Source of the DNA: Nemertoderma westbladi
Taxonomy: Eukaryota; Animalia; Xenacoelomorpha
Length of the DNA stretch: 53,479 nt
NCBI GenBank assembly: GCA_032718475.1
Contig: JAUCBJ010006358.1
Coordinates: forward strand, 1-53,479
Direction of reading: 5' to 3'
The translations under genes were made by a program, and so were the position numbers. Position 1 is the first letter of the stretch. The number at the start of each line of letters is the position of its first letter. This document shows, one piece after another, positions 12,441-52,580 of the stretch. The notes below the pieces were generated by a model. It saw only the letters and a list, made by a program, of their open reading frames with translations. It searched no databases and had not been told where the DNA came from.

Positions 12441-12450
12441 GTTAAAACTA
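12441..12450 (+). promoter_or_regulatory. Non-tRNA primer-binding site of element 3 (GTTAAAACTA)
   Basis: Directly follows the LTR. Complementary to AGTTTTAAC at 12214-12222 and TAGTTTTAAC at 21150-21159. Confidence 0.7.
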
Positions 12451-21574: not shown

Positions 21575-22876
21575 AATAAAATATCGAGAGCAAAAATATC
21601 GAGTGTTGAAAAATATCGAGAGTAAAATCATCGAGGGTTGAAAAATATCGAGTGTTGAAAAATATCGAGTGTTGAAAAATATCGAGAGTAAAAATATCGA
21701 GTGTTGAAAAATATAGAGTGTTGAAAAATATCGAGAGTAAAAATATCGAGTGTTGAAAAATATAGTGTTGAAAAATATCGAGAGTAAAAATATCGATAGT
21801 AAAATCATCGAGGGTTGAAAAATATCGAGTGTTGAAAAATATCGAGTGTTGAAAAATATCGAGAGTAAAAAAATCGAGTGTTGAAAAATATCGAGTGTTG
21901 AAAAATATCGAGAGTAAAAATATCGAGTGTTGAAAAATATCGAGTGTTGAAAAATATCGAGTGTTGAAAAATATCGAGAGTAAAAATATCGAGTGTTGAA
22001 AAATATAGAGTGTTGAAAAATATCGAGAGTAAAAATATCGAGTGTTGAAAAATATAGTGTTGAAAAATATCGAGAGTAAAAATATCGATAGTAACAATTT
22101 TTTTAAATAAGGGTTGTATGATAATTTTTTTTACTAAAAATGTTCTAGAACAACAATATTTATCAACATTTGGTAGCTTATAAGGTACGTGTTCTAATAT
22201 AATATTTAACAATATTTATAATATTTATCAAAATTTATAGCTAGCACTTCTTTTATAATATTTATTAAAAAAATAGCAAAAACTAGCTAGTATAATAAAT
22301 CTGGTAAATGGTGTACACCCAAGGTGTATTACATAATGCAATTCATTCACTTGCACTTGCACTGTTGTAACCCATGCACTGCAATATTGTTCCATAATTC
22401 TAAATAAAATGCTCAAGCAAAATGCAATATTTTTATTATCTTATTTTTATCATCTTATTTTTATTATTTGATATTTTTCAACACTCGATATTTTTCAACA
22501 CTCGATATTTTTACTCTCGATATTTTTACTATCGATATTTTTAAACTCAATATTTTTACTCTCGATATTTTTACTCTCGATATTTTTACTCTCGATATTT
22601 TTACTCTCGATATTTTTCCTCTCGATATTTTTCAACACTCGATATTTTTACTCTCGATATTTTTACTCTCGATATTTTTCAACACTCGATATTTTTCAAC
22701 ACTCGATATTTTTACTCTCGATATTTTTCAACACTCAATATTTTTACTCTCGATATTTTTCAACACTCGATATTTTTCAACACTCGTTATTTTTGATATT
22801 TTTCATCTCGCGTTATTTTCAACACTCGTTATTTTTACTCTCGATATTTTTACTCTCGTTATTTTTCACCATTACC
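21575..22876. mobile_element. Foldback/MITE-like structure: inverted arms made of 15/17-bp tandem units
   Basis: AAAAATATCGAG(TGTTG/AGT) array ~21580-22095; reverse-complement array CTCGATATTTTT ~22470-22870; ~375-bp AT-rich spacer. No TSD identified. Confidence 0.65.
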
Positions 22877-28800: not shown

Positions 28801-30439
28801 GGGATTCCTTTTGTGGTGGATCCGATAGGGGCACCGAGGTGTTGGAGCAGGAATCGGTGGGACCGGGATTCCTTTTGTGGTGGATCCGATAGGGGCACCG
28901 AGATGTTGGAGCAGGAATCGGTGGGACCGGGATTCCTTTTGTGGTGGATCCAATAGGGGCACCGAGGTGTTGGAGCAGGAATCGGTGGGACCGGGATTCC
29001 TTTTGTGGTGGATCCGATAGGGGCACCGAGGTGTTGGAGCAGGAATCGGTGGGACCGGGATTCCTTTTGTGGTGGATCCGATAGGGGTACCGAGATGTTG
29101 GAGCAGGAATCGGTGGGACCGGGATTCCTTTTGTGGTGGATCCAATAGGGGCACCGAGGTGTTGGAGCAGGAATCGGTGGGACCGGGATTCCTTTTGTGG
29201 TGGATCCGATAGGGGTACCGAGATGTTGGAGCAGGAATCGGTGGGACCGGGATTCCTTTTGTGGTGGATCCGATAGGGGCACCCAGGTGTTGGAGCAGGA
29301 ATCGGTGGGACCGGGATTCCTTTTGTGGTGGATCCGATAGGGGCACCAAGGCGTTGGAGCAGGAATCGGTGGGACCGGGGTTCCTTTTGTGGTGGATCCG
29401 ATAGGGGCACCGAGATGTTGGAGCAGGAATCGGTGGGACCGGGATTCCTTTTGTGGTGGATCCGATAGGGGTACCGAGATGTTGGAGCAGGAATCGGTGG
29501 GACCGGGATTCCTTTTGTGGTGGATCCAATAGGGGCACCGAGGTGTTGGAGCAGGAATCGGTGGGACCGGGATTCCTTTTGTGGTGGATCCGATAGGGGT
29601 ACCGAGATGTTGGAGCAGGAATCGGTGGGAGTGGGGTTCCTTTTGTGGTGGATCCGATAGGGGCACCGAGATGTTGGAGCAGGAATCGGTGGGACCGGGA
29701 TTCCTTTTGTGGTGGATCCAATAGGGGCACCGAGGTGTTGGAGCAGGAATCGGTGGGACCGGGATTCCTTTTGTGGTGGATCCGATAGGGGTACCGAGAT
29801 GTTGGAGCAGGAATCGGTGGGAGTGGGGTTCCTTTTGTGGTGGATCCGATAGGGGCACCGAGATGTTGGAGCAGGAATCGGTGGGACCGGGATTCCTTTT
29901 GTGGTGGATCCAATAGGGGCACCGAGGTGTTGGAGCAGGAATCGGTGGGACCGGGATTCCTTTTGTGGTGGATCCGATAGGGGTACCGAGATGTTGGAGC
30001 AGGAATCGGTGGGAGTGGGGTTCCTTTTGTGGTGGATCCGATAGGGGCACCGAGATGTTGGAGCAGGAATCGGTGGGACCGGGATTCCTTTTGTGGTGGA
30101 TCCAATAGGGGCACCGAGGTGTTGGAGCAGGAATCGGTGGGACCGGGATTCCTTTTGTGGTGGATCCGATAGGGGCACCCAGGTGTTGGAGCAGGAATCG
30201 GTGGGAGTGGGGTTCCTTTTGTGGTGGATCCGATAGGGGCACCGAGATGTTGGAGCAGGAATCGGTGGGACCGGGATTCCTTTTGTGGTGGATCCGATAG
30301 GGGCACCCAGGTGTTGGAGCGGGAATCGGTGGGACCGGGATTCCTTTTGTGGTGGATCCGATAGGGGCACCCAGGTGTTGGAGCAGGAATCGGTGGGAGT
30401 GGGGTTCCTTTTGTGGTGGATCCGATAGGAGCACCGAGA
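22877..30439. repeat. 64-bp GC-rich satellite array, ~118 copies
   Basis: Unit ggcaccgagatgttggagcaggaatcggtgggaccgggattccttttgtggtggatccgatagg, with a few recurrent variant positions. Confidence 0.98.
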
Positions 30440-31600
30440 CTTCTATAGACTTCGACACCGAGAGTTCTATAAATTATCATTTTAGTACAGGCTCCAGACT
30501 ATGACCCCGTAGGAATTTTATATATGACTGAGTTACCCCACATAGATGTTTAGTGCAGATATGGGATATTTAAAAAAAAATTGGGTAGACATCACCAAAC
30601 GGTTGCGCTGGTTTTTTAGAGGGCCTTAACGATAGCAACGGAGGGAATTGCCATAGGAACAGCTCTTATAATAGATATGACGAGTTACAATTTATGGAAG
30701 ATTACCATTTTGGATATGAAGAATGAATATTATGGCATATTTAGTTTTTTGAATAAATAATAGCGACCACCTATTGGGTTTATTCAAACATTATTCACAC
30801 ATTATGTGATATTTACATAATTGTGATTTCATGACTAAGATACCAAAATGCTAATGGTCTGCAGCTGTCTTATTGGCACGTGTGTTGTAAGAGGTTGTAT
30901 CACCCCCTACAATCGCGTTCGTAGTGGATACGCCGCAGGTATTAATAATACAATTGCTGTATTAAATAATAAATTTGTCATCTTTTTACTAAAATACACT
31001 GTTATTCCTAAAATTACTATATTTATCCTTCTTCAATATATAATTAATCTATAACTTTACCAATATTATTATTGCACTTTCCACATACGCGCTTGTATTA
31101 TTTGCTGCACACGCCTTTCTTCTAAGCAAAATATTTCCGTTGTTGGAATTATAATAATAAAGTAGAATCATCTAATTGCAACCTTGGAGACACAGATCAC
31201 CTGGAACATTGCACCTATTCGGAGCCACATCATACGAACAGCCAATGGAAGCATTTTGAGTAGCTTTTACTCAAGGTTGCTATCTAACCCTTATCATCAA
31301 TGTTGCTGGGGATTAGTCCACAATTCTCCATTGGGGGCACCATTTTGTACGCGAAGCCATCGTTGCGGACTTACTAGCAAGGCACCGTAATTAACCTACT
31401 TGATATAGGTAGTGGTGGAGCTATAAATTCCGCTACAACTGCTGTTTAAACTTTCTCGTAATTTGTGGCACTTCATGTTAATAATATTATGAAAGTTACG
31501 ACGTTATTAATTAACGTATACATATAATTCATAACTGAAGGTTATTTCTACAAGTAATATTAGTTAGCCATTTGTACATTTACTGTCTAATTATTTGGAT

Positions 31601-33079
31601 ATGTACAGAGTAATATGGAAGAAACAAACAGGATTAATTGGACCGTCGCGATTTCTGACTTCTGATTCAAAATTATTTCCAAACGATCATGATTCACCGA
31701 ATATGCTCACCGATTGTCCCGGCCCAAAGTCCCATCAGTTGCATCACAAGTTGCAGCTGCTACAAAACGCGGGAGCAGTCACCTTCTTTGCCGATTACGA
31801 GAAAAGCAAAGGGAACTTCATTGTGGATGCAGACGGAAACCGCCTCCTCGACATGTTTATGCAGATCAGCTCCATTCCCTTGGGTTACAACCATCCATCC
31901 ATTATAGATGCGGTTACGAATAAAGTTAACATGGCAATGTTCGTGAACCGACCAGCTCTCGCTTCCTTTCCCCCTTCTACCTTCCCCGATAAGTTGAATA
32001 GCACCCTAATGTCAGTTGCTCCTCCTGGTCTGCATGAAGTGCAACAGATGGCGTGTGGCGCATGCTCAAATGAGAATGCTATGAAGCAACTATTCTTCGC
32101 TCATATGGGTAAACAGAGAGGAGAGAAGCCTGTAAGTGACTTGGAAAGTTCATCGAGTGTCATTAACCAACAACCGGGAAGTCCCAAGATTTCTATGCTG
32201 TCGTTCACTGGGGGGTTCCATGGAAGGTCTATGGGAACACTAAGTTGTACTCATACAAAGCCAATCCACAAATTAGATGTGCCTGCTTTTGATTGGCCGA
32301 TTGCGGATTTTCCGCAACTGCAATACCCCCTTGATGAGCACGTTGTTGAGAATAAGAAAGAAGAAGAGCGATGTTTAGCGATGGTCGAAGATCTTATTGA
32401 AAGGTGGAGTCATCATTGCCCTGTTGCCGGGGTGATTATAGAACCAATTCAGTCTGAAGGGGGTGATAACCACGCCTCTGGTAATTTCTTTCGCTCTCTT
32501 CAACGTATATGTAAATCAAACAATGTTGCGTTGATTATGGATGAAGTTCAGACAGGTGGTGGCGCAACTGGGGCGATGTGGATGCACGAACTGTTTGATC
32601 TCCCTGAACCGCCAGACATGGTGACATTCAGCAAGAAAATGATGACTGGCGGTTATTATTACAAAAAGGATTACAGACCTGATCTCCCGTTTAGGATATA
32701 CAACACCTGGGTTGGAGATCCATCGAAAATTATCCTTCTTGAAGCGTTCTTAAAAGAAATGAAGTCCAAGGATTTGTTGAATAATGTTCGAAAAGTTGGT
32801 GAAATTCTCCAGAAGGGATTGTTGGAATTATGTATGTTGTACCCCAACTTCGTATCTAATGCAAGGGGAGCTGGGACATTATGTGCGGTGGATATTGTGG
32901 CACCTAGACAAAGAAATACAATTGCAGCTCAGCTTCGTTCTAAGGGCATTGTGGTTGGTGTGAGTGGCCAGCACGCTATACGTACCCGCCCATCACTAAC
33001 ACTGCAGGAATATCATGTTGAGATATTTATAGATCGATTTTCCGAGGTCCTTCAGGGCCATGAAAGTAAAAAAAGATAA
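31601..33079 (+). CDS. ABAT: 4-aminobutyrate aminotransferase (GABA-T), mitochondrial type, single-exon CDS
   Basis: 492 aa from ATG 31601. Motifs: QISSIPLGYNHP, ACGACSNENA, GGFHGR, HKLDVPAFDWP, EPIQSEGGD, DEVQTGGG, PLP lysine in VTFSKK, NTWVGDP. Confidence 0.96.
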   Translation: MYRVIWKKQTGLIGPSRFLTSDSKLFPNDHDSPNMLTDCPGPKSHQLHHKLQLLQNAGAVTFFADYEKSKGNFIVDADGNRLLDMFMQISSIPLGYNHPSIIDAVTNKVNMAMFVNRPALASFPPSTFPDKLNSTLMSVAPPGLHEVQQMACGACSNENAMKQLFFAHMGKQRGEKPVSDLESSSSVINQQPGSPKISMLSFTGGFHGRSMGTLSCTHTKPIHKLDVPAFDWPIADFPQLQYPLDEHVVENKKEEERCLAMVEDLIERWSHHCPVAGVIIEPIQSEGGDNHASGNFFRSLQRICKSNNVALIMDEVQTGGGATGAMWMHELFDLPEPPDMVTFSKKMMTGGYYYKKDYRPDLPFRIYNTWVGDPSKIILLEAFLKEMKSKDLLNNVRKVGEILQKGLLELCMLYPNFVSNARGAGTLCAVDIVAPRQRNTIAAQLRSKGIVVGVSGQHAIRTRPSLTLQEYHVEIFIDRFSEVLQGHESKKR

Positions 33080-33395: not shown

Positions 33396-33963
33396 AACAT
33401 AACAAAAAGCGAAACAGTAGAAATATATAACATAACGTAACATAACAGTAGAAATATATAACATAACATAACAAAACATAATATAACATAACATAACAGT
33501 ATAAATATATAACATAACATAACAGTATAAATATATAACATAACATAACAGTAGAACTATATAACATAACATAACAGTAGAAATATATAACATAACTTAA
33601 CATAACAGTAGAAATATATAACATAACATAACATAACAGTAGAAATATATAACATAACTTAACATAACAGTAGAAATATATAACATAACATAACAAAACA
33701 TAACATAACATAACAGTATAAATATATAACATAACATAACAGTATAAATATATAACATAACATAACAGTAGAACTATATAACATAACATAACAGTAGAAA
33801 TATATAACATAACTTAACATAACAGTAGAAATATATAACATAACATAACATAACAGTAGAAATACATAACATAACTTAACATAACAGTAGAAATATATAA
33901 CATAACATAACATAACAAAACATAACATAACATAACAGTATAAATATATAACATAACATAACA
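33396..33963. repeat. AACAT-based minisatellite (left part)
   Basis: (aacat)n-aacagtagaaatatat units. Confidence 0.95.
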
Positions 33964-34759
33964 GGCTCATTCCAAAGTAAAGTACGGGACATTCGTACAC
34001 AATTTTGAACTGTGATTGCCTGTACAATGTTATCGACAGCACATATGTGCACAAAATTGTGCTTGGATTGAACTTTCGAATATCAGCTTTGATTTCGCGA
34101 AGATTATGGCGGGACTTGGTCACTTTTGATAAAACACCAGCTTGTCCAATTAAGGTAAAGTACGGATTCGTACGAAATGGTTTTTTTTATTTTATGATTT
34201 CAATTCTAAAGTTTAGCGAATTGTGCGCAGGTACAGTGTTGAGTTGATGTTTAGGATAAAGCTGTATTATTAAGCTTAAATGAAAATATAAATATCAGAC
34301 GAATTGCTACATTGTTAATTTTTTACAATTTGTTTTGTGTGGTAAAGTATGGGACATTGCTAGGTAAAGTACGGGACCTGTACGAATTTTATGGTCGAAA
34401 TGGTCTCTTACACTTAATCTAACAGTAATTTCTGGACTGTCAGGGCCCTAAACCGATTAGGTTCTCTGTTCGCAGAACACCGAACACTATTCCGGCCACG
34501 GAACTAGTCCAGCAGAATGCCTTTATAGAATCCTGGAATTTGTGGGACGAGAGGATCTCAGCAACTAAGCGAAAACGAACAATAGGATGTTCCTAGACCC
34601 CCCCCCAAAATTTATCCAGAAGACTTTTCGCCATACATAATGTGTTAAAAAAGTCTACGGTTCTCCAGCTAGGGCCAATTTGAGTCAAAAAGTCCGCTTC
34701 CCTAGCAACCACGTTGCTATGGAGATAAGTCCAGAACCGCTAATGCTACGGACTTGGGA

Positions 34760-35507
34760 CCGGCGCCAATCGATAGGCAGCATATGGGTTTACATTCAAA
34801 TGAAAAAGTTGAGAGTGATCCGATCATGATCTTGACCATGATCAGCAAAGATCAGTTTTGATCAGCAATCGGACACTCAAGGCTTGCTCCAATCGAAAAA
34901 CTTAACATTACAAAAAGATTCAGCGACCCCACATTAGTCATGATTCCCGTTAAAAGATTTAAAAAAAAGTGAATTCTTCCCGGTCAAAACGCAAGATCAT
35001 GATCGCGCAAAGATCGGACTTCGTAAAATCGTAACTAAGCATTTTGGATATAAACAATTACTGTAGGAAACGTTCAGAACACCGCCCTGAGTCGATTAAA
35101 AAAAAAATTGGCCCGATCGGACAGCCGGTTCTCGAGATCTGATACCTGATCATTAAAGATGATATTTTTCGGTTTTTTCAAATTTTCTCGAAAACTTTGT
35201 TTGAGACCCCCGATTTTTTTTTTACGAATCGACTTCTATGATGAAGGGGCAACTTTTGAACATTTCGAAATTTTCAAAAAGCGATTTGATCAGGCCGCGA
35301 TCAGAAAAGATCGTGTTTTCGGTTTTATTTTGAAGACCAAGTCCTGGGAGTTCACCGTATGGAAAAACTTAACATCACAAAAAGATTCCTCGCCCTCGAA
35401 TTATGGGGGGTAGCCAAAATTTGGGCATAAAAAAGTTCAAGTCTAGTGGGTCAAAACTCAAGATCATGATCGCGAAAAGATCAGTATATTTAAAATCGAA
35501 TCTAAGC
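34760..35507. repeat. GATC-rich ~470-bp-period repeat, interrupted by element 2 (continues 47628-48250)
   Basis: aaaacttaacat.acaaaaagattc at ~34898, ~35366 and ~47957; gagacccccgatttttt at ~35203 and ~47795. Confidence 0.7.
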
Positions 35508-36751
35508 TGTTCGCGCTTTCAGACCTTTGGCAGTTTAACCCGCCAAATTAGAATGTCTTCTAGATAATAAATCACTTTTAGTCTATGACAAGTATTTAAT
35601 TCACTACACTAGTCGAAACCAATCTGTGCGCGATCATTCACCCGCTGGATATTCCCGGGAGATTGGGTTCGACGGTTTAATTTTATTGCTATGTAAGCCT
35701 AATGTATTATTCGACTGACAGTATTATATAATCTCTGACAATATTATTCACCTTCGGGGAATATTAACAGTTCCTTTAGGACGTGGCACTTTATCTATAT
35801 AAACAGAGTTATGACTTAAACTACTCACAACGACATGGCTTAATTATAATTCACATATATGGCGCATTCTTTAGGAATGCTTCTTTAACAGACTCACTCA
35901 TACACAATGCTGCACAATACTGCACACTAATCTGCCAATCTTCACTGATTTTAGTCACATATAAAAGGAACACAGACTGACTCATGTAGGGTCTATCAAA
36001 TAACATTAGATTCACTTCAAACCACTTTAACATAAGTCACAATCGTTTATCTGTAACCCTTCTCTCTTACCTTCGGTATATCAAGAATATTGGGTTTCGG
36101 GGTTATTTATCGTTATTCCAAATATAATTATTCATCAACCATATTATGAAGAACTGACGGTAAATAGCAGTATAAAACAACAATGAAAACACTGATTGTT
36201 ATGAGTTTGCAATGTTTCAGCAGTCAGCATGTATGATCAGTCAGCAGTATGCCGGTCCGCAGTAGTCGTTAGTTAAAGGATATATGCCCTTTATAATTAA
36301 ACCTACTAGTGTAAGACTAAAAACAGTAAAGCACAAAAATACTTCCAAGCCGTTCTTTCTTTGGCTCAGGACTGAATGTAAACACTGCACATAGGCATTG
36401 CGTCATTTCTCGGAAATTTTCTGTACAAGGAGCCACAAAAACGCTCTAATTGGCTGACTGAACTGAGAGACGCCGTAGAACAAAGGAAATCAACACGTAT
36501 GAATGTCAGCTGTTAACCGTAGTCATAGTAACTACTGTTCAAGAGTAGCTATCACCCTTTTGCGTCACGAATTGCCATAGAATCATAAAATATGCCTTTC
36601 ACAGTACACATACGGAGGAAATAGGTCTTAGATCCTCTAAAAACACCGATACAGCAATAATACGGTCTCTTACACTTATTAAATCAGCTACAGAGTATTT
36701 TAATGTAAAAGATAATAAAAATAACGGGGCAATTCAGCAAAGGCTTTTACA
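35508..36751 (-). repeat. 3' LTR of element 2
   Basis: tgttcgcgc...cttttaca; preceded on the - strand by purine-rich GGGAGCGG (36752-36759, PPT-like). Confidence 0.96.
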
Positions 36752-39700
36752 CCGCTCCCAGAAAATGGGATTTTCAGTCTATAAAATATAAAAATCACAG
36801 TTTCTAAAACATAAAGATACTCTAAACAGTTAGTCTTTCTTACGCAGACGGCGTTTACGCAGTTTTTTGAGGCTAGCAAGAGTCTTTTTCTCTTTGGGGG
36901 AGCCACTTTACTAGGAGGGCCATAACTCCTGGGTGAAGGGTGCAATATGATTGCATCAGAAGGTGTAGGATTGTGGTCGAGGTATCTGCCGTTTCGATAT
37001 GCTTCTCCTCGAGCTGATTTTCCTCCGCTCGTAGCTGGATACGTTCATCCAAAAACTCTCGCAGAGAATAGGATCGTCCAAGTTCGATAACTTCTTAGAG
37101 ATTCTGGATTTCCCAATCGAATTGAGATAAGGCCAATTCGTTTATCGATTGGACTCACTGTTATAACTTACGTTTATCTGAACAAACGCAGGTTTCCTTT
37201 TTGATCTTTATAAAATAGCGTTTAACTCGTTTCGTACAACGCTCTCCTTCACCTTGATGAGGGGTTGTATCGCGTTAAACGTGGACGACCATACGGTTGG
37301 ATAGTGATATTAGGTGTCCGCGTCACAATCCGGCTAGGTAAGATGGGCGGCTAGCTAGAAATCACTGTCGGAGTGTTACCGATTAATTGTTAGGGTAGCA
37401 CTAGATCTTTGAACAGTGAATACAGTCCGCGAGGATCCGCGACACCACCAAGATCGCAGGTCTGAGGTCCAACTAAGGAATGAGGAGGTTTGACCGAGTA
37501 TTCCGGGACTCTGATCGTAGGTTTACTCCAGGATCATTCGAGCCGAGTGAGCATAGGTGATACGTCAACAAGTTTCGGTTTACGTGGATGTTTATGTCTT
37601 TCCGTTTATTAGTTGGGTCTAGGGCATTTATCGTAATAATACCAAAGACGCACGTCTGGTAGGGTAAACGCGGGTGATATTTATTTGTTGTTACAATGCT
37701 TCTATCAAGAATTCCAAATATACGTTGGAGTTACCGCGTCCATTTGTTTCTTAAGTGTCTTTTCTTTCGAGTCGATTTCGAATAGAATTTTCGCATTCGA
37801 ATTTCCGTTTATGGTTCCGACTCCGCTGGGCAGGATATATAGTCGACATAGTCCGTATTGTGTAAATCGATAGGATGACCAGTAGTTAAGAAGCCCATAT
37901 ACATACCATTACGCCGCGTATATCGAGCAGCGAATTTTCTATAGTCCAACTCGCGCGAGCTGCTCTTGGGACATTGGCGGTTCGATATAACGACCATCGT
38001 CCTCCGCAGCAGTTGGACTAACGTCGCCGCGTATTAAGCTATCAACAAACGCTTGTAAAAGTAGAGTATATCGCTCCCCGATACCAAGACCATCTTCTAT
38101 CAACTCCGTCATATCTGCTATATATGGGTTTATCCATATTATAATGAGTTTATATTTAGGCGAGCGGGCGTCGCTGCCTACCCCAATCAACCCCGGACAG
38201 TACGAGATCCTCAGCGCCGATGTGTCGTCGCCGCTGTACTTTCGCCAACGACGTAGCCGCACAACGACAACGACAACCGGCACAAGTCACTCAACTGTCC
38301 GTCCCAAAGGCTTAGATGTACTTCAGGTTTCCTTGGAGAGTTAGGTTACTTTTACGATTGCGACTAGCTACTGTAAACACACCTTAGCAGTAACATTCAC
38401 CTATAAACTCACAAATACCACACACACAACTTGTCACAAATTACACACACTCGGGTCACTTGTCCGTTAGTCAATGCCTTCCAGAATGTCACTGTATTAT
38501 TATGTATCCTTGGATACTAGTAGTGCGCTATTTATTCCCAATGCTATTCAATGGGACAAGCTTTCTATTGTTCTTTTAACTCAATTTTAATTCTAGCGTG
38601 GTTGTTGCTATGGTGACATTATGCAAAGCTAGCGGTAGAATTAGGATAGTTCCAATGCATACAGATCTGGGATGTTATTTAATAGTATTCTTTAATAGTC
38701 AATGTTCTGTTTTATACATGACTTTATGAATTTTATCGGCTATTGACTATGTTTGGGAGACTTTCACACTCTCATACGCATGATAAGATAAATCTCCGCT
38801 CCCTTGATCTATTAATTAATGGAATTTTGGGAACTTTATAAATTGCGTAAAAATGGCAATTTATTAAATTCATTAAAAGGCATGAATTTAAATTTATTCC
38901 CTGAAATTTTATTATTTGATAATTAAATGGACATATTTTGATTCTAGAACATGTCTAGGGACACAAGATCCTTAATTCTATGACAATTGTCTTTTTTAAG
39001 AATATCGGTAAATGCTACGATATCTTAATTGACTAGAATTGTTGAAGGATCTGAATTTTACAGATTTTGACTTATTTGATTTGTAAATATTAACTAATTA
39101 ATATTTGAGATGGGCACCGATTTATTCCAGAACTTGTCTGGGGACGTTAACCACTGATTCTATAATTTGTCTTTCAAGTATATCGGTGGGTGCCACGATA
39201 TCTTAATCGACTAGAATTACAGATGGTCAAAGGGTTTAACAGATTTATTTTGCGTTATACGCTACTGTTAAAGGGACATCACGCTACTATATGTATTATT
39301 TAATATACGGTATGAGAGCAATATCGCACGAAGCAATGTCAGTGTGAAGAGGCAAGTCGTTTCCAAGGTCTACCCAGAGCTTGGTTTAGCCGAGACACGA
39401 GGATCTGAACTTTGCATTCCTAATACTCTGCCTACCAATAATACTTAAATATAGTAGTGGCTTTATTGTACTTTAATAAGTACGGACATTTCATCTTACT
39501 GTAGTCACGTATTTATAATATGATACGGACAGTAAGGAAAGAGGAAAAGAATTATTTCTTGCCGTCGCATTAAATATAATATATACGTAATTAAGTAATA
39601 AACGCGAATATATATTGCACTAATCTACTAAATAATCGCTAAAATAACATTCTACTGAATAAAATTAAAGAAAACGATTATAATAAAATTACATAGTAAT

Positions 39701-39768
39701 ACATACATAAATATAAAAATAATAAAATAATATAAAATAATAGAGTCACACACCCACTCCATATGTTG

Positions 39769-42700
39769 TTACGTTATGGAGTCCCTAGATGTTTGAAGGA
39801 TTAGGGAGGTGGTCGTGGGAAGAGAATCTTGCCTTCCACAGTTTCCGGAGAGTCCTCCATTCCCTTCCGATAAACACAAACGACCGACTGGGTGATTGAG
39901 TCGCTGCATCCTGAATACAATTCCAGGTTTCCTCTTCGTCCTGGAATAGTGACGATAGAAACATCGCTCAAAGTATATGACGGCGTCACAAAGCCGATTC
40001 CAGGAGCTATAGTGGTCCGTCGCTCTCTGCAGGAGAGGTGAGAGTCCCTGCGAGACGTCTGATGTTCCAGAGCTCCAATCGCTCTCTCTGATCTTCATGA
40101 AGGATCCACTCGCGGAGGGGAGGCCCAGATCCACGGCGTCGTCCCTGGCAACATGTAATACCGACAGATCTATCCCGGGTTCAAATAACTCCGATCCACC
40201 CGTCCGGGTTTCAGGTTCGACTTTCTCCGCTCCCTTGGCTGGTCTAATCTCAGTCGGAGTAAGATGGGGAGGCCATTCATTCTCCTTACTCAGGAAGTCG
40301 GGTTCACCTAACCGGTCTATAGTATCTGTCAGTTCTTGAGGAGTTGCTCCTCTGGAAGCGATGTCCGTTGGATTAAACTTCTTGGGGCAATATCTCCATT
40401 GATCTACATTGGAGCTAAGATTGTCATTATCTGAGGAGTGTGGTGTTCCCTCAGTTGGGTCGTCTCCCTCACTAGTATCATCTTCCCATTCACTCACCTG
40501 GCAGACGCGATCTTGAAGCAGTCTTTCCCTGAGCGTTCTACGGGAAGGTCCAGTAAGGTACCAACCTACTCTAGTTCTTACCGCATAGGTCTGTAGTGGC
40601 TGCGGTTGAGCAGGCCGTTTCTCTAATGTCTCCAGCGCCTCATGCGCGTTTTGGCCGATGAGTATTTGCACTCCAGGATAATCAGTCTGGAATCGAGGTA
40701 TGTTAAGATGTTGGATGCTCTCATCCTCGTCCCAATTATAAAGGTCTGCTTGAGTAGTAGCGAAGTTCTTTATAGCCACCATTTTCACTGACCTGATGCT
40801 ATGTTCTCCTAGTTCGTCCTGGGGGGTGGACAACGCGCCTATATAATAGTCGGCAGCTACAGTTGAATTCCAAACCTGCATGATCCCTGACATGTTTAGC
40901 TTGGTTCGGAACTTGGGTTGTCCAGCAAAGATGACTTCGGCTAGTTCCCTATCGATGAATGTTCCTGTGCTACCGGAGTCCAGGAGGGCGTTCACTATAT
41001 AGCTCTTCTGAGGTCCGTGGACCCGTAACTGGACTACATGAAATTCTCGGATTCCTATATTGGAAGTTGGCGCTTTCCAAGATGGTTGTTGATCGGAAGT
41101 AGTTAAGGTAAGGTCGCTGTCTGTGTCTTTCTCATACACGAGTGCTCGATACACTGCGGTGGTGTTTATTAGGTAACAGGATTCGTTTTGGTCGGAGAAC
41201 TCGTCCGTATAGAATCCTTCCATCTCAGATTGATCAGTGTCGTTCACATCACTGAATTGGACATGTAGTTCGGACTCACTTACCTGACTCGGGCTGTTTC
41301 GTTCGAATTCCGTGTGCAACAAGATATGATGTTTTGCGCCGCACTTTGCACACCTTGCGTCGGAGTTACAGGTTCGCCGTTGGTGTCCTCGTCTGAGGCA
41401 ATTATAACACAACCGCTTATCCCACATGACTTCACGTCTATCCTTTAGTGATTTCCTCAGGAATTTATCACACGCATTTAAACGGTGGGGCCCGTCGCAC
41501 AGCACACATTTCGGCTTGATGTTACTTACTTTAACCTGTGCTATGTGGTGCACACTTGTTCTTTCCTCGGGCTTTCTCACCTGAATTCCTTTAGGAGACG
41601 TAGGAGGGGTTTTTTGTACCGGTTCCCTTCTGTCATTGGGTCGAGACTTGGATTTACTTACCTGTTCTTTAGGCATTTTATTCACGTAATAAGATCTATC
41701 CGGGTCCTTCCCGCTATCTTCTCCTTGAGAAGTCTGGCTTTCGCCGTCATCGGTATAACATACTGGTGTTATTTTTCTCCTAGAGACGGGTTTTTCACTT
41801 ACCTTGTTTTCCGGTGTTTTCTCCCTAGACAGTTTCAGGAGCTGTAATTTCACTTCTCCATCTAGGAATGACATGAGATCAGCCATGGTAGGGTCTCGCC
41901 GTTGTTGTTCCATCATATATAACACTTTCTTATCCCAGCGTGTGCCTACTCCACCTTTAGGTAAAGTAGAAGCCACTGCTCTAATAACCATAGTGTTCTG
42001 ATACTCGTGAGACTTACCTAGCCAGTCTAATTGTCTGCAGATCTCCTGGATCTCATCGGAAAACTCGATAATTCCGCTACTAATAAACTTTCGGGGCGCT
42101 ACTAACTTGGCATACAAGTACCCAGCGATATTATTCCTATTACCATACCTGATGTTTAGTGTATCCCAAACTTGTCTTAATCCGTCTGGATGTCCAATAA
42201 ACTTTAACGCCATTAACTTGGGAGATCCTTCCAAGCACTCGATGAGGTATCTAAGTTTTTCTCCATTAGATAGTACAGAGTTCTGTATGTTATCTTTGTA
42301 ATATTCATTAAAAGGTAACCATTTCATCTCATCTCCATTGAACTTGACGATCTCTCCAACCTTTACCGCTTGCCGGGCTTCGGTTCTAGCCATTTGACGC
42401 GTAAAACTTTCTTGGGCCATCGTGCTATTTAATATCGAGTTATCGGTATATAAATTTCTCGGATTATGATCAGTTCTATAGGGAATATCATTATCAACAG
42501 GTCTATAATTACCCTTAATAGGGTTCACTATAGGAGTTTCTACTTCGCTAGCAGTATAGATGCGTGTAGGCTCCACACCTTCCGCATGAGATACTTCAGA
42601 CCTAACGGGTTGACACATTGTTACAGAGGTTGGTGGTATACCCTTTTTTAAGTTTACTAATTTATCGCGTTCTAACGCGATACTTTGCTGCACTTCTTGC

Positions 42701-44211
42701 AACTCTAACCTGCTTTCCCTCACCGTTCCTTTTAAATGTTGGACAGTCCCTTCCAACTCTCGGACCTGTTGGGAGGAGCGTATCCGATTCTCCTTCATCT
42801 CTCCGAGGAGAATATCCATCCCCCGCCGTCTCTCGTCTACCCAATCAACCGCCGAAACGGGATCCGCCAACGTCGTAGCGGGCAGACAAGGGACAACGGG
42901 CGACAAATTCGGAATATTTCGCTCGGGGTCCAGGACCTGAACTGTCTCTCGGGCAGTTCTACGGGGCACAGGTAGCTTAGTGCTATGTAGAGGGAATTTA
43001 TAGGTAGCTTCAGGGAGCACAGGTGTATCTATTACCGTAGGGGTGATTTCAAGAACAGGCCTACTTATTTCAGGCTCATCTACTATAGTAGGGAGTCTTT
43101 CTATTTTAATTATTTGGTCTGTGGGCTCTGTACTACCTAAGTTGGTGTTATTTAGCTGCCTTCTAACAGCTGGAGGCAAATCAGGCAATTTCTGACGGTG
43201 GAATGTTCTTTTACGTCTACTTAGACGAGATCTATTTCCCTTGCCTTCAGTATCGGTGGTATCGCCTTCCTCAGATGATGTATATCCCTGTCTTTTGGGA
43301 GTAGATCGATTCATCATCTGCATATTACTAGCTGCTAACTGTTTATTTATGCAGTCTTGATTCTCCTGAATGTTTTCCAATTCTAATTGGGTGATTTCGT
43401 CAGCCGCTTTCCTTTCTGCTTCTGCCACTTTTGTCTCTGCCGCTGCCTCTGCCGCTGCCTCTGCCGCTGCCTCTGCCGCTTTTGCCTTGGCCGCTGCCGC
43501 CTTTCTTTCTGCTTCTGCAACTACTACTGCTGCTTTCTTTCTGTCTTCTATACGTTTTTTCTTTACTTGTTCTTCTTGGTCTCTAGCGATGCGGAGTTGT
43601 TCATCGAATTTAGCTTGGTTCGCCGCTAACATTTCCGCATCGATTGCGTCCAGCACAAGCTTGGTTCCTTCACTATTAGGGCTAAGCCCCTCCAGCCTTC
43701 TCCTCAACTCTTCATCTCCTACAAAGCGTTGATAGTCTGACAGATAGATGTCAATAGCATCCCTCTTATGCGGTTTCTCTGCTGTCACTTCGCTTTCTTC
43801 TTGAGAAGAAGTGGCGTCGGTTGATTCTCCATAGGTTGGCCGCTCATCATAAACCTTATCCACCATCTTCGCTCCGCGTTCGGGCGTCCGATCATCAGTA
43901 TCCGAACTACTGGAGCTATCGGGCCGCTGAAAACTAAGTTCTTGGCTCGCGGGTTGTTGCTGTTCCGCTGCTTCTTGGTCCCGCTTGACCTGAGCTCGAG
44001 TGCCTATGATAGACCTACGATGTTGGACCAGTCTAGGGTCTGAGATTACTACAGTAGGGATGGCCTTTCTTACAGCAGGAGGTGACTTAGACTTGGATCT
44101 AGGATGTTCTATACTTGGATCTGGGTCACTGATCTTTTTAAGACACTTTCTGACAGTCATTCTAACACTATCTAGGAGACTATCCGACAGTGATTGGGTT
44201 GTGTCAGACAT
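39769..44211 (-). CDS. Gag-protease polyprotein with RT/RNaseH and integrase deleted in frame (1480 aa)
   Basis: Gag core, three knuckles, ALLDSGSTGTFID, then junction NLSSNVDQWRYCP..NPTDIASRG (post-RNaseH segment), and an integrase C-terminus-like HPVGRLCLSE. No YMDD. Confidence 0.92.
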   Translation of the reverse strand: MSDTTQSLSDSLLDSVRMTVRKCLKKISDPDPSIEHPRSKSKSPPAVRKAIPTVVISDPRLVQHRRSIIGTRAQVKRDQEAAEQQQPASQELSFQRPDSSSSSDTDDRTPERGAKMVDKVYDERPTYGESTDATSSQEESEVTAEKPHKRDAIDIYLSDYQRFVGDEELRRRLEGLSPNSEGTKLVLDAIDAEMLAANQAKFDEQLRIARDQEEQVKKKRIEDRKKAAVVVAEAERKAAAAKAKAAEAAAEAAAEAAAETKVAEAERKAADEITQLELENIQENQDCINKQLAASNMQMMNRSTPKRQGYTSSEEGDTTDTEGKGNRSRLSRRKRTFHRQKLPDLPPAVRRQLNNTNLGSTEPTDQIIKIERLPTIVDEPEISRPVLEITPTVIDTPVLPEATYKFPLHSTKLPVPRRTARETVQVLDPERNIPNLSPVVPCLPATTLADPVSAVDWVDERRRGMDILLGEMKENRIRSSQQVRELEGTVQHLKGTVRESRLELQEVQQSIALERDKLVNLKKGIPPTSVTMCQPVRSEVSHAEGVEPTRIYTASEVETPIVNPIKGNYRPVDNDIPYRTDHNPRNLYTDNSILNSTMAQESFTRQMARTEARQAVKVGEIVKFNGDEMKWLPFNEYYKDNIQNSVLSNGEKLRYLIECLEGSPKLMALKFIGHPDGLRQVWDTLNIRYGNRNNIAGYLYAKLVAPRKFISSGIIEFSDEIQEICRQLDWLGKSHEYQNTMVIRAVASTLPKGGVGTRWDKKVLYMMEQQRRDPTMADLMSFLDGEVKLQLLKLSREKTPENKVSEKPVSRRKITPVCYTDDGESQTSQGEDSGKDPDRSYYVNKMPKEQVSKSKSRPNDRREPVQKTPPTSPKGIQVRKPEERTSVHHIAQVKVSNIKPKCVLCDGPHRLNACDKFLRKSLKDRREVMWDKRLCYNCLRRGHQRRTCNSDARCAKCGAKHHILLHTEFERNSPSQVSESELHVQFSDVNDTDQSEMEGFYTDEFSDQNESCYLINTTAVYRALVYEKDTDSDLTLTTSDQQPSWKAPTSNIGIREFHVVQLRVHGPQKSYIVNALLDSGSTGTFIDRELAEVIFAGQPKFRTKLNMSGIMQVWNSTVAADYYIGALSTPQDELGEHSIRSVKMVAIKNFATTQADLYNWDEDESIQHLNIPRFQTDYPGVQILIGQNAHEALETLEKRPAQPQPLQTYAVRTRVGWYLTGPSRRTLRERLLQDRVCQVSEWEDDTSEGDDPTEGTPHSSDNDNLSSNVDQWRYCPKKFNPTDIASRGATPQELTDTIDRLGEPDFLSKENEWPPHLTPTEIRPAKGAEKVEPETRTGGSELFEPGIDLSVLHVARDDAVDLGLPSASGSFMKIRESDWSSGTSDVSQGLSPLLQRATDHYSSWNRLCDAVIYFERCFYRHYSRTKRKPGIVFRMQRLNHPVGRLCLSEGNGGLSGNCGRQDSLPTTTSLILQTSRDSIT

Positions 44212-45529
44212 GTTTGATTGTACAGTTGGATGCCTACTGCTATATTACAGTCTAAGCAAGTCTAGTAATTCAGTATTAACTGCTAGCCTAGTAATTAATT
44301 ACCGATACTGCTACTCAGTGTAGCGTGATATATATATAATATATTAAAATACCGGTATGCTTATAGTATATATAAGTATTATTACAGACTAGGTTTATCT
44401 CAGAATACCGGTATAATTTTAGCACAAATATATATAAATATATAATAGGCCTATCGGGAATACCGGTATACAGCTTACAATTTGTAGTATATATAATTCT
44501 GGACTAGAATTAATTACAAGTACCGGTATAATTTCAGCCTAAATTTACAGAAATAAAGATAATAGGCCTATCGTAAATACCGGTATATCAATTATTTTAA
44601 ATAATTGAATTTCTGAACTTTAGGGTTACTTTGTTACTTTACTTACTTTATTACCGTTATTTGAACAGTAGTCCAACTGATATTGAGACCTAATGGTTAT
44701 ATGGTAGGTCTACTATTTATAAATCGTTAGATTTGATTTATAATATATATATACCCGTTTTAATGGGCTTTGTCAATATTTGAAATAAATGTTATTATTT
44801 CTGGGGAGTAATCACTACACAAAGCGGTGCGCTTTCAGTGAAGTGTTACTTATAGGACACTAAAACAAATAATTCTAATTTACCTAAGTTACTTAATACT
44901 ACAAATTACGTACAATTCGGGTTGAGATTACAATCTCTAAATAAACACAAAAATTTACAAAAACACAAATACGAATTTTTAGGGTATTTTTACAAGAAGT
45001 CTACAAACCAGCCTAACAAAGGGTTAGAAACTGGTTATTACAACGGACAGGGTACTACGGTATTTGGAAATAATAAGTAGTAGTGAATACACTGCGTTGT
45101 CTAGATAGGAAAATACCACCGCCTGACGACCTATAGCCGTATCGCTATAGGTTCTACGTTATGTATCACGGAGTGTTCCTACCTAGAAGTTAATAGAGCT
45201 AATCGAATGTGCCTATCAACCACTTTACAACACAAATATAATGTCTACAATAATTACTTCGGAAAGTACTGTACACTAAACCCTAAATTAGGTACGAGTA
45301 CTTATATAACAGACAATCAGTAGTTAAATATACTTGAACAGCTAAAAGAACCACGGCATCTGCTGGAGTGACCGATGCACAAAATCACCAGTCTTTACCT
45401 ACGCCGAGCAGCCCGTGTAGTACCGGGTTAATTTAACTATAGCGGTATGTATAACAAACACAATTACTGTAGGAACAAACTTGGGGAATGAATGTTGCGG
45501 ATAATCGCATAAACTCTGAACAATAAATA

Positions 45530-46110
45530 TTACGCTACGCGTACAAACTACTCAAACAAAATACAGACCGAACACTGACAGACTACTATCAAGCCTAAAC
45601 AAACTACGGTATATGCAGACTCCGAAATGATTAGGGAGTATGCGCTCTAACCCAGTAGTGCGACTTATTCTTTAGTTGGGGGATTACCTTACAGCGTTCG
45701 CTGCCCCTACTGCCTAATCGTACTTAATCGGACAGATGATCTACACACGCGGCAATCCGTTCAGACCTAATAACAGCCAGACAACTATCCAGCCTACAAA
45801 TTATCTAAATAAAATTATACGCTACCCGTACAGACTTACACAAACAAAGTACAGACTAAACGATGGCAGACCACTCTCAAGCCTAAATAAACCACAGGAC
45901 ATGCAGACTCCGAAATGATTAGGGAGTATGCGCTCTAACCCAGTAGTGCGACTTATTCTTTAGTTGGGGGATTACCTTACAGCGTTCGCTGCCCCTACTG
46001 CCTAATCGTACTTAATCGGACAGGTGATCTACACACACTGCAATTCGTTCGGACTTAACAGCAATCAGACAACAGCTCAGCCTACAAATCGTCTGTACTA
46101 TCTGATCAGG
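45530..46110. repeat. ~288-bp tandem duplication in the element 2 leader
   Basis: atgcagactccgaaatgattaggg at 45613 and 45901. Confidence 0.85.
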
Positions 46111-46372
46111 CTTACACGCCTTCTGTTCAATACTGGCCTACAAATAAATAAAACTTGACAGAAATAAGTAAACCATATAAAGGTATAAGGGGTGATCAAT
46201 CCCTAATCCCTTAACAGCCTACCGGTATACAACAATCAAATCGAATAATACTAGTGTACTTATACGGCAGTACCGGTTCTAGCGGTTGGGCCTACTGACC
46301 TACAGGTGTACCGTTCAGGTTTACCGGTTGACCGGTACTTTCAACTTTATTGCTTACTGCAACAAAGAAGCC

Positions 46373-46383
46373 ATATCCTTTAA
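46373..46383 (-). promoter_or_regulatory. Non-tRNA primer-binding site of element 2 (TTAAAGGATAT on -)
   Basis: Abuts the 5' LTR. Exact 11-nt complement at 47149-47159 (and 36273-36283). Confidence 0.75.
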
Positions 46384-47627
46384 TGTTCGCGCTTTCAGAC
46401 CTTTGGCAGTTTAACCCGCCAAATTAGAATGTCTTCTAGATAATAAATCACTTTTAGTCTATGACAAGTATTTAATTCACTACACTAGTCGAAACCAATC
46501 TGTGCGCGATCATTCACCCGCTGGATATTCCCGGGAGATTGGGTTCGACGGTTTAATTTTATTGCTATGTAAGCCTAATGTATTATTCGACTGACAGTAT
46601 TATATAATCTCTGACAATATTATTCACCTTCGGGGAATATTAACAGTTCCTTTAGGACGTGGCACTTTATCTATATAAACAGAGTTATGACTCAAACTAC
46701 TCACAACAACATGGCTTAATTATAATTCACATATATGGCGCATTCTTTAGGAATGCTTCTTTAACAGACTCACTCATACACAATGCTGCACAATACTGCA
46801 CACTAATCTGCCAATCTTCACTGATTTTAGTCACATATAAAAGGAACACAGACTGACTCATGTAGGGTCTATCAAATAACATTAGATTCACTTCAAACCA
46901 CTTTAACATAAGTCACAATCGTTTATCTGTAACCCTTCTCTCTTACCTTCGGTATATCAAGAATATTGGGTTTCGGGGTTATTTATCGTTATTCCAAATA
47001 TAATTATTCATCAACCATATTATGAAGAACTGACGGTAAATAGCAGTATAAAACAACAATGAAAACACTGATTGTTATGAGTTTGCAATGTTTCAGCAGT
47101 CAGCATGTATGATCAGTCAGCAGTATGCCGGTCCGCAGTAGTCGTTAGTTAAAGGATATATGCCCTTTATAATTAAACCTACTAGTGTAAGACTAAAAAC
47201 AGTAAAGCACAAAAATACTTCCAAGCCGTTCTTTCTTTGGCTCAGGACTGAATGTAAACACTGCACATAGGCATTGCGTCATTTCTCGGAAATTTTCTGT
47301 ACAAGGAGCCACAAAAACGCTCTAATTGGCTGACTGAACTGAGAGACGCCGTAGAACAAAGGAAATCAACACGTATGAATGTCAGCTGTTAACCGTAGTC
47401 ATAGTAACTACTGTTCAAGAGTAGCTATCACCCTTTTGCGTCACGAATTGCCATAGAATCATAAAATATGCCTTTCACAGTACACATACGGAGGAAATAG
47501 GTCTTAGATCCTCTAAAAACACCGATACAGCAATAATACGGTCTCTTACACTTATTAAATCAACTACAGAGTATTTTAATGTAAAAGATAATAAAAATAA
47601 CGGGGCAATTCAGCAAAGGCTTTTACA
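46384..47627 (-). repeat. 5' LTR of element 2
   Basis: Direct repeat of 35508-36751. Confidence 0.96.
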
Positions 47628-49202
47628 TAAGCATTTTTCTAATAAACATTCATTGTAAGAAATGTGCAATGGTCTATTCTGAGTTGATTAAAAAAAAAAT
47701 TGGCTCGATCGTGCAACCAGTTCTCGAGATCAGCTTCCTGATCATAAAAGATCGTGTTTTTCAGTTTTTCCCGATTTTCTCTAAAACTTTGTTTGAGACC
47801 CCCGATTTTTTTTTTACTAATCGACTTCTATAAAGAAGGGGCAACTTTTGAGCATTTCAAAATTTTCAAAAAGCGATTTGATCAGGCCATGATCAGGAAA
47901 GATCATGTTTTCGGTTTTATTTCGAAGACCAAGTCCTGTGAGTTCACCGTATGAAAAAACTTAACATTACAAAAAGATTCCTCACCCTCGAATTCGGGGG
48001 GGTAGCCAAAATTTGACCATAAAAAAGTTCAATTCTAGGGGGTCAAAAGATCATGATCGCGAAATGATCAGTTTTTTTGAAATTACTTCTGAGCATTTTG
48101 GGGCAAAACTTTCAAACTAAAAAACATTCACTGGAGTGTTCTAAGTAGATTAAAAAAAATTTCGACTCAATAGGCCTACCGGTACCGGAGATATGGTCGT
48201 CCAAAGTCTGCTTCCGGTAATTCGAAAATATTTCGAAAACCCTTGATCGAATTTTTTCCTTGAAAATATGTGAATGTACAGTTAGTGGACCCGCATCTAA
48301 CGATATATCACAATCCATATTTCTGATGATAGGTACCGGTGAAATCAGACTTTACCAAAAAAATTCAAATTTTAGCTACTCATGTCTGACTATCTCGAAA
48401 ACTATAATAGGTATGGAAATACTTTCACTGCAAGAAATGTTCGCCTATCCAATGCGCTTCTAACTCTGTGCTCGGATTTTGCATAGTGTCAAAACCTACA
48501 ACTTAACCCCCCCAGCGGAGGGAACGGAGTGACCGGAGCGCCAGTACTATCTTTCATTATTATGAAGTAATAAGGGCGGTGGGTGAGGTAGGTGGTGAAC
48601 ACTATTTATAGGGTGGAGGGAGGGTCTAGTATATTACTTTAGGATATTTGATTTCTTTGCAATATAGTTTAGCTGCCTCAGTCTTATTTGTAATATGTTA
48701 TACATTATACCAAATTATATCAAGTTTTAACATACTACATTGTCTACCTGTAGGAGAAATATACAATGTAGGGCTCATAATATATTTATAAATAGACTTA
48801 GTATATTTACATTGTATAACAGAGTTAATTGATACTATTACGGTATTATACTAAAGACGCCGCTTTGATATATCTGATCAAATGGCAATTTCTTGTATAT
48901 TATCTATTTCACTATCTTGGGTATATCATTCAATTTCTAAAACTATAATAATAAACATTTACTTCACTTCTTGTTTACTCGCATGGATATATTGATATAA
49001 AACACTTCAGTATAATATCTTATAGGGCCAAACGCAGATTAATCGGAATAATATGTTTAATTATTGTTACAATTGGCACATTGAAGTAAGTAGTACATGA
49101 GTTTGATAAAATAATTATGAATCTGTATCTTATTCTACTTTGTCTATATGATTATGTTATATAATAATGTTACTTTATCACTTTGGTTTAAACCGATCTC
49201 CT

Positions 49203-50606: not shown

Positions 50607-52580
50607 AACAGTAGAAATATATAACATAACATAACAGTAGAAATATATAACATAACATAACAGTAGAACTATATAACATAACATAACAGTAGAAATATAT
50701 AACATAACTTAACATAACAGTAGAAATATATAACATAACATAACATAACATAATATCATAAATTCACTTAAAGACAATTTCCATCTCTTCCTACAGAGTT
50801 AAACAATATTCCCATTATATATATATATATATTAAAAAATATAATAAAAATAAAGTAATAGGAACGCATTTTAGACCACCATGTTCAGCATGATCCGGTC
50901 TCTTAAATATAATTTTGAGTTGAACGAATTATGTTTTTGACAGACCAATATCAAGCAAGTAAAATTATTTGGAAACAGAGAAACAACATGTTCCTATCTG
51001 TTCAACCGTAAGTAGTCATCGTTTTAATTATAATTGAAAGTACCGACATACTGACTAATGGGGGCTTGGTATATAAATATAATAAATGGGTAAAATTATA
51101 AAAAATAATAAATGGCCCTATTTTGGGCTTAATGTCCTGATCCTATTTTTTTTTTTGTTAGATTAAGGGGTGTAAGACTTTAGTGTTTACCCATTTATTA
51201 TATTTATATACCAAGCCCCCATTAGTCAGTATGTCGGTACTTTCAATTATCATATTATGAAGTTAAGCAGAATTCCGACAATTACTGCAAATTGTAAAAT
51301 CTAATATATTTTTTATACTGTGTGTGTTTGCCCCAGCAACCTACCAGTTTTCCATTGATATCACTGATTTACTTACTGTATAGGGTTCCAATGTTCTGTG
51401 GTCTGATGTCTGTTTGGGATAGGTGGTAACAGAGTTCATGGTGCGATTTTTTTAGGTCATTGGTGCAATATAGATAGGCTTTGGGTAATCCTTTGTCCAG
51501 CTGACTACCGGTATCATTTAGTGTATGGCGGTTAGGTTAGGGTTAGGGTGCGATACATACCTGTATGTTGAGCATGTTTCAATATATTTGTTTATGTCGT
51601 TTTTGTTTGTATTATTTTGTGTCGTTTTTTGATGGCCTTAGGGCTGAGTACTACTTAGGGCTTAATGTCCTGATCCTATGTTTTTTGTTAGATTAAGGGG
51701 TGTAAGACTTTAGTGTTTACCCATTTATTATATTTATCGTTTTATTTAAGCAGGGACACAAAGCGCAACCCTGTTTAAATACTGTAAGTAAAATTATCAC
51801 ATTGGTTACATTTTTTGCATATGTGTTTCGCCGGGAATTTGGCTCATCAGCTACACTAACCCGTGCAGGACACATGTTAATCCAACTAACTACACCAAAA
51901 CCCAGCTAAACACACACACATACATAATAAACAAAATAGTATTGCATTCCAGATCAAATAAGCAATCATTTCCTTAGCAACACTATAATCATGTGATAAT
52001 TTTTTTGTCTAGTGCATGGTTGCTAATTATAATAAAGACTAAAGTAATAGGAACGCATTTTAGACAGCCATGTTCAGCATGATCCGGTCTCTTAAATATA
52101 ATTTTGAAAAACATATGCAAAAGTGTAGCCAATGTGATAATTTTACTTACAGTATTTAAATAGGGTTGCGCTTTGTGTCTCTGCTTAAATAAAACGATGA
52201 CTACTTACGGTTGAACAGATAGGAACATGTTGTTTCTCTGTTTCCAATTAATTTTACTTGCTTGATATTGGTCTGTCAAAAACATAATTCGTTCAACTCA
52301 AAATTATATTTAAGAGACCGGATCATGCTGAACATGGTGGTCTAAAATGCGTTCCTATTACTTTATTTTTATTATATTTTTTAATATATATATATATAAT
52401 GGGAATATTGTGTAACTCTGTAGGAAGAGATGGAAATTGTCTTTAAGTGAATTTATGATATTATGTTATGTTATGTTATATATTTCTACTGTTATGTTAA
52501 TTATGTTATATATTTCTACTGTTATGTTAAATTATGTTATATATTTCTACTGTTATGTTATGTTATATAGTTCTACAGTT
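50607..52580. repeat. Large inverted repeat (~400-bp arms) enclosing nested inverted and direct repeats; Penelope-like remnants
   Basis: Arms ~50610-51026 and ~52190-52575. Inner inverted pairs 51030-51093/51186-51251 and ~51736-51828/52106-52198. Direct pair ~51125-51205/51658-51736. Confidence 0.85.
51826..51850 (-). ncRNA. Partial hammerhead ribozyme core
   Basis: Minus strand reads CTGATGA-GCC-aaattccc-GGC-GAAA (conserved core plus stem II). Stem I cannot be closed. Confidence 0.45.

Follow-up and report, generated by a model that had tools for sequence, protein, structure and literature searches.

Bel/Pao retrotransposons are generally regarded as tRNA-primed. The first-pass annotation of the DNA studied here took this as the established view, and the ICTV profile of the Belpaoviridae agrees: it gives an 18-nt primer-binding site (PBS) complementary to the 3' end of a host tRNA, with priming by that tRNA, and describes Bel/Pao replication as poorly understood (PMC8742986). 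In Tf1, according to the accessible parts of two papers, pairing involves the first 11 bases, and RNase H cleaves between base 11 and base 12 (PMC7175516, PMC4600332). The accessible text of another paper describes self-priming for Tf1/sushi and predicts it for Tcn1 and for the TAR lineage of plant Ty1/copia elements (Houba, Osr-1), the latter from a match that spans 10 bp or more and starts 0–5 bp past the 5' LTR; the same text has tRNA halves priming some Ty1/copia lineages (PMC6317226). The first-pass annotation knew of no description of self-priming in Bel/Pao elements, and there was likewise none among the openly available papers that our literature check listed. Term searches showed that PBS and tRNA are absent from the main text of three Bel/Pao papers (PMC554778, PMC3118150, PMC6238403), and the accessible parts of five further papers (PMC3601003, PMC3286476, PMC13524379, PMC5445492, PMC8220671) contained nothing on Bel/Pao self-priming.

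The stretch of 53,479 nucleotides analyzed here (the window) contains three elements of interest. Element 1, on the minus strand, possesses a Bel/Pao-type gag-pol ORF of 2536 aa (3–7610, minus strand) that is open to the window edge and carries PF03564, PF05380, and PF17921, with the integrase last; these domains identify it as Bel/Pao. Its RT region is 36 to 43% identical to the best Bel/Pao polyprotein matches, the named ones being mostly from marine invertebrates. The window does not reach its 3' LTR, and the ends of the 5' LTR (9828–11092, minus strand) were therefore inferred from homology to element 2, to which element 1 is 81% identical in gag DNA and 77% identical in the BLAST-aligned part of the LTR. 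The PBS of element 1, ATAACAGTC (9819–9827, minus strand), has a 9-bp complement at 10582–10590 (minus strand), 754 nt from the LTR end. A 288-nt tandem duplication is present in the long leaders of both elements 1 and 2 (8885–9469 and 45531–46089).

Element 2 is bounded by two 1244-nt LTRs on the minus strand, the 5' copy at 46384–47627 with TG...CA ends and the 3' copy at 35508–36751 with a short purine tract just before it. The copies are 99.76% identical by self-BLAST (three differences) and are flanked on both sides by the 5-bp target duplication GCTTA. This near-identity suggests that element 2 moved recently, presumably by means of the enzymes of a coding relative. An ORF of 1491 aa (39769–44244, minus strand; Pfam PF03564) covers the gag and protease region, which is 77% identical to that of element 1. 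When the element 1 polyprotein was used in a tblastn search, element 2 matched only aa 2–116, 293–1420, and 2003–2163, and the RT, RNase H, and integrase regions were missing. The roughly 3 kb where the integrase region would be (36752–39768, minus strand) had no match to the element 1 polyprotein and held two short frames without a Pfam match. Element 2 sits within a repeat array, as its flanks (35036–35496 and 47628–48083) share 86% identity in direct orientation. Its PBS, TTAAAGGATAT (46373–46383, minus strand), follows the 5' LTR with a 0-nt spacer and is not of the TGG type. The exact 11-nt complement, the predicted self-primer, is located within the 5' LTR at 47149–47159 (minus strand), 765 nt from the LTR end; the same 11-mer occurs in the 3' LTR at 36273–36283 (minus strand) and nowhere else in the window.

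Element 3 lies on the plus strand, with a 658-nt 5' LTR at 11783–12440 and a 3' LTR at 20724–21377 that is preceded by a G-rich purine tract; the LTRs are 97.3% alike and the target duplication is AAATA. Elements 2 and 3 thus both display TG...CA ends, a purine tract, and a target duplication in the 4–6-bp range. A degenerate Bel/Pao gag-protease region was located at 15352–16977 (plus strand) by tblastn with Bel/Pao polyproteins (best E value 1.6e-31); the same search gave no RT match, and the region had no Pfam match. Near the 3' end, a 365-aa frame (18903–20000, plus strand) contains three zinc-knuckle-like motifs (weak PF14392 match, E 0.06). The PBS, GTTAAAACT (12441–12449, plus strand), has a second 9-mer copy at 12474. 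Its complement spans 9 bp at 12214–12222 (plus strand) in the 5' LTR and 10 bp at 21150–21159 in the 3' LTR.

In each of the three elements, the PBS was flush with the LTR end and perfectly complementary to the element's own LTR, over 11 nt in element 2, 9 nt in element 1, and 9 nt in element 3. No TGG was found in the first 10 nt past the LTR in any of them, and an 18-nt tRNA-type PBS was therefore absent; as this absence is the finding itself, it leaves the protein-based assignment to Bel/Pao unchanged. A TGG does occur at PBS positions 11–13 of element 2, and a tRNA site beginning there was rejected because element 1 lacks TGG at the same place. The match lengths were compared with those of dinucleotide-shuffled LTRs (5000 per element, scored when the match was at least as long as observed). 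At offset 0, the observed length was reached by 4 of the 5000 shuffles for element 2, 48 for element 1, and 36 for element 3; allowing offsets of 0–3 raised these counts to 7, 120, and 102, respectively. Each PBS matched the LTRs of the other two elements over only 5 to 7 nt. When other interior positions were examined (1396 per interior), the same length was reached at one in element 2, nine in element 1, and four in element 3.

The first-pass annotation had also pointed to a compensatory change between elements 1 and 2, and the alignment bears this out. The two complements occupy the same aligned LTR columns even though the two PBSs differ, and when the pairs were compared in register from the LTR end, five of nine were changed on both sides and none was broken. 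The claim of the same 11-nt pattern in all three elements was upheld in part: element 3 does have a complement and its PBS is flush with the LTR, but the match extends over 9 bp, as in element 1, and 11 nt were found in element 2 only. The complementarity between PBS and LTR in these elements is real and far beyond chance. Chance matching in AT-rich sequence would be conceivable for element 1 or element 3 taken alone, with shuffle rates of about 1 to 2%, but it is largely refuted, and we give it hardly any credence, in view of the shuffle result for element 2, the homologous position with its five double changes, and the enrichment among relatives described below.

In having no tRNA site and a PBS that complements their own LTR, the window elements resemble Tf1/Tf2 of Schizosaccharomyces pombe, Tj1, and the Tf1/sushi and Tcn1 elements of Ty3/gypsy; the complement is about 11 nt in the Tf1 group and 9 to 11 bp here. 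They differ in superfamily, being Bel/Pao by protein (PF05380, PF03564) and without the Ty3/gypsy chromovirus RT lineage; they are not members of Tf1/sushi but Bel/Pao elements that probably work like Tf1. They further differ in that the complement of elements 1 and 2 lies about 760 nt from the PBS, and most of their Bel/Pao relatives use a predicted splice joint. Tf1 reportedly requires a hairpin in U5, as the title of a paper has it; a predicted counterpart, resembling a U5 inverted repeat, occurs in both element 1 and element 2, some 20 nt short of the LTR end (46402–46423, minus strand, in element 2). The nematode element Cer7 reportedly encodes a tRNA-like primer of its own, which would be a different mechanism from the self-priming considered here. 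By the TAR rule, as given in the accessible text of its source, element 2 would be predicted to self-prime, and element 1 and the 5' LTR of element 3 are short by one base; TAR elements are plant Ty1/copia, and the splice-joint form is not mentioned in that text (PMC6317226). The tRNA-primed Bel/Pao elements (Belpaoviridae, Semotivirus) are like the window elements in their LTRs, purine tract, 5-bp duplication, and gag-pol domain order, and differ in the 18-nt tRNA PBS (PMC8742986), which elements 1 to 3 lack.

We consider it highly probable that elements 1 to 3 are Bel/Pao elements that self-prime in one form or another. With moderate confidence, we favor the Tf1-like form, in which a 9- to 11-nt stretch of the element's own RNA, and not a tRNA, serves as primer. 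Transcription would start at the base with which the complement begins, or very close to it (47159 in element 2, 10590 in element 1, and 12214 in element 3). The 5' end of the RNA would fold back and pair with the PBS, RT would use its RNase H to cut past the last paired base as in Tf1, and the freed 3' end of the primer would initiate minus-strand DNA at the LTR edge. Elements 2 and 3, having no RT, would depend on a coding relative to supply it and the other enzymes.

The main rival to this reading, which we regard as rather unlikely, retains self-priming and moves the start further upstream. The primer would then be an extended 5' fragment whose tail stays unpaired, or an internal segment that two cuts set free. 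The promoter motifs bear on this point. The first-pass annotation had cited CCAAT boxes and YR initiators in support of a start at the complement. The CCAAT boxes are indeed present, 170, 186, and 171 nt upstream in the three elements, but they are far away, a distance that would suit the upstream start, and YR steps occupy 24 to 26% of LTR positions, about a quarter, which makes them weak evidence for a start site. A motif scan of the three elements found no TATA box at −30 of the predicted starts; a TATA-like word lies about 11 to 12 nt upstream of the complement in elements 1 and 2. Initiator-like TCAGT words occur about 90 nt (element 2), 125 nt (element 1), and 33 nt (element 3) upstream of the complement, as the rival would have it. 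On the other side, the pairing was rarely extended by G-U pairs.

RNA folding was compatible with self-priming, in a manner that depended on the RNA span, and was not decisive. For RNA reaching from the complement to 60 nt past the PBS, the primer:PBS helix had a probability of 0.96 in element 2, 0.98 in element 1, and 0.32 in element 3; in that span it was part of the most stable fold. Of 13 relatives folded likewise, 11 gave a probability of 0.79 or higher. The complement-to-PBS distance is 80 to 371 nt in these 13 folded relatives, far shorter than the approximately 760 nt of elements 1 and 2. Both this distance and the short duplexes of element 1 (−9.7 kcal/mol) and element 3 (−6.8 kcal/mol), at 9 bp each, count against the Tf1-like form. 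Adding 35 upstream nucleotides abolished the primer:PBS helix in the folds of elements 1 and 2, a result that counts against an upstream start. With a leader of at least 100 nt (element 2) or 240 nt (element 1), the helix probability fell to 0.06 or below and U5-leader helices were preferred under a nested-only model; these helices cross the primer:PBS helix, and the folding program is unable to represent the two together. In element 3, the helix probability varied from 0.05 to 0.9 with the RNA stretch chosen, and the start position made little difference.

Elements 1 and 2 have 18 predicted helices in common, several of them with compensatory changes, and being shared does not by itself set a helix apart. 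Among these are a leader hairpin 5 nt past the PBS (46345–46367, minus strand) and a 13-bp U5-leader helix (46592–46580 with 46251–46239, within 46239–46592, minus strand) that is not nested with the primer:PBS helix. Two segments directly upstream of the element 2 complement (47171–47190, minus strand) are predicted to pair with 46558–46550 and 46489–46480, with compensatory changes between the two elements. The resulting helices use the 30 nt that directly precede the complement, and this covarying stretch speaks for a transcript that begins further upstream. The U5 arm 46489–46481, however, can also pair with the leader segment 46258–46250, and all three segments have changed together between elements 1 and 2. 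Such an arrangement fits different folds in the 3' and 5' LTR copies, and the upstream helix sharing that arm would then be used in the 3' copy only, which weakens the case for the rival. The number of shared helices also raises the possibility that the PBS-LTR pairing is simply one of many conserved LTR-leader structures for packaging, splicing, or polyadenylation control, the true primer site being elsewhere. We find this very improbable: among the shared helices only the primer:PBS helix has an arm that directly abuts the LTR end, a place where a tRNA-type site is absent. The LTR end fixes the start of minus-strand synthesis in LTR elements. As a separate observation, an AATAAA in the element 2 LTR (46558–46565, minus strand) can pair with the leader past the PBS (46345–46367, minus strand), a pairing that could hide AATAAA in the 5' copy only; at this place element 1 has AATAAT.

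Relatives were collected by a profile search with the RT region, which confirmed 515 loci in metagenome contigs; the 80 best of these were fetched. Viral contigs yielded no relative, and a motif common to elements 1 and 2 had no match in the metagenome contigs. For ten loci in which two copies fixed the 5' LTR end, we looked for PBS matches across a predicted exon-exon joint in the LTR, allowing any GT as donor. Five loci (L019, L020, L034, L068, and L070) gave matches of 11, 15, 10, 12, and 12 nt, respectively, across such a joint in their own LTR; the donors (GTAAGT, GTAAGG, GTAAGC, or GTACGT) were near consensus and the acceptors pyrimidine-rich. L033 matched over 11 nt unspliced at offset 3. 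L013 and L035 reached 8 and 6 nt, and 11 and 12 nt only once the end or the offset was shifted. L030 and L042, which have a TGG-type PBS, matched their LTR over at most 7 nt.

The first-pass annotation had proposed to look for enrichment of PBS-LTR complementarity over controls, and this was observed in the relatives. Enough upstream DNA for a blind scan was available at 61 loci. In 19 of the 61, the own LTR offered a spliced match of 11 nt or more, compared with 67 of 3660 cross pairs, many of the latter being between members of one family. At a threshold of at least 10 nt, 22 loci were found. Nine further loci were picked by eye, and seven of the nine gave 10 to 15 nt under relaxed splice rules; two were already among the 22. 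A match of about 16 nt in L005, read by eye across two contig ends, was excluded from the counts. Twenty loci were tabulated, of which 18 have a PBS beginning with GT and two with AT; the predicted introns span 71 to 426 nt. Exactly 11 nt pair in 11 of the 20 (a list picked at ≥10 nt), which is the Tf1 length in the accessible part of the source (PMC7175516). L019 and L021, like L003 and L068, are copies of one family, so the independent cases are fewer than the loci. With these results, the candidate self-priming PBS has held in the shuffle, cross-element, and covariation comparisons and extends to distant relatives. The splice joint goes beyond the first-pass annotation, as do the lack of RT in elements 2 and 3 and the self-priming proposal for Ty1/copia TAR found in the accessible text of PMC6317226.

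These loci also bear on whether a host RNA (a tRNA half, a tRNA fragment, or another small RNA) primes in trans, the LTR match being a regulatory helix that masks the PBS. Precedent comes from the tRNA halves of Ty1/copia (PMC6317226, accessible text) and from the tRNA priming that the ICTV assigns to the family (PMC8742986). We judge this improbable. The 20 loci have 15 different PBS sequences, each matching its own LTR joint, and one host RNA cannot serve them all; the gap between the LTR end and the match is 0 to 4 nt, no window PBS begins with TGG, and the tRNA-type relatives L030 and L042 lack the LTR match. Rfam and ARAGORN detected no tRNA genes in the window, and none in a scan of 60 of the 80 loci. 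A clear tRNA-type PBS was seen in only four of the fetched relatives (L030, L040, L042, and L065), which formed one weakly supported group in an RT tree. In this tree, from which sequences covering <300 aa (including L068 and L071) were left out, the spliced type was scattered over many branches and element 1 lay apart from the clade of fetched relatives, its branch having weak support (0.16).

In retroviruses the PBS is regenerated from the primer, and the simplest account of a PBS matching an exon-exon joint would be that it was copied from a spliced primer. Most relatives would make their primer by removing an intron from the LTR, these introns being predicted from motifs only. If transcription began at the complement, the first exon of the spliced relatives would be only 4 to 10 nt long, a point in favor of the upstream start. 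We looked for the same arrangement in the window. A motif scan yielded a candidate GT-AG intron 3' of the complement in element 2 (46671–46946, minus strand), with its homologous place at 10421 to about 10134 in element 1. Element 3 is like the relatives in the GT start of its PBS and an AG before the last 7 nt. A splice-joint primer was nevertheless rejected for elements 1, 2, and 3, because the best spliced matches (6, 8, and 9 nt) are no longer than the unspliced ones. The window elements are, as read from their sequence, the unspliced form, like L033 and L023. A comparison of L023 with L026 did not show precise intron loss, their LTRs having diverged beyond alignment. In assembled contigs of one run (its RNA nature being a guess) with many element variants, no clear GT-AG joint was seen among six listed. 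In L031, L056, and L007, the predicted end of the first exon is the same 9-mer as the element 1 complement, probably by coincidence. L027 and L028 lie on one contig as two identical elements in tandem, 12276 nt apart.

A broader reading, which we hold tentatively and at slightly below an even chance, is that self-priming may be the rule in a large Bel/Pao branch, mostly with a primer built by the spliceosome from a cap-proximal first exon of 4 to 10 nt and a second exon in the LTR, which would tie reverse transcription to splicing. Elements 1 to 3 would have lost the intron or never had it, and the LTR of elements 1 and 2 would switch its fold between the two copies. Should self-priming be correct, Bel/Pao would be the third LTR superfamily with the Tf1 strategy, and both the description of the Belpaoviridae and PBS-based annotation would need revision. 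The splice-joint form would represent a primer made by host splicing, which we did not find in print. The predicted start, cut site, and joint are all exact to the base.

Several other features were noted in the window. A GC-rich tandem array at 22877–30438 comprises about 118 copies of a 64-nt unit that are 90 to 95% alike, and it contains three open frames on the minus strand. Two mutually inverted short-period arrays (21578–22088 and 22470–22866) adjoin it. A single 503-aa open frame at 31568–33079 (plus strand) encodes a 4-aminobutyrate aminotransferase with 43 to 56% identity to the listed animal homologues, and is an intron-less gene or a retrocopy. The element at 50633–52580 has long inverted ends of about 400 nt (95%), and their tips match the satellite at 33413–33964.
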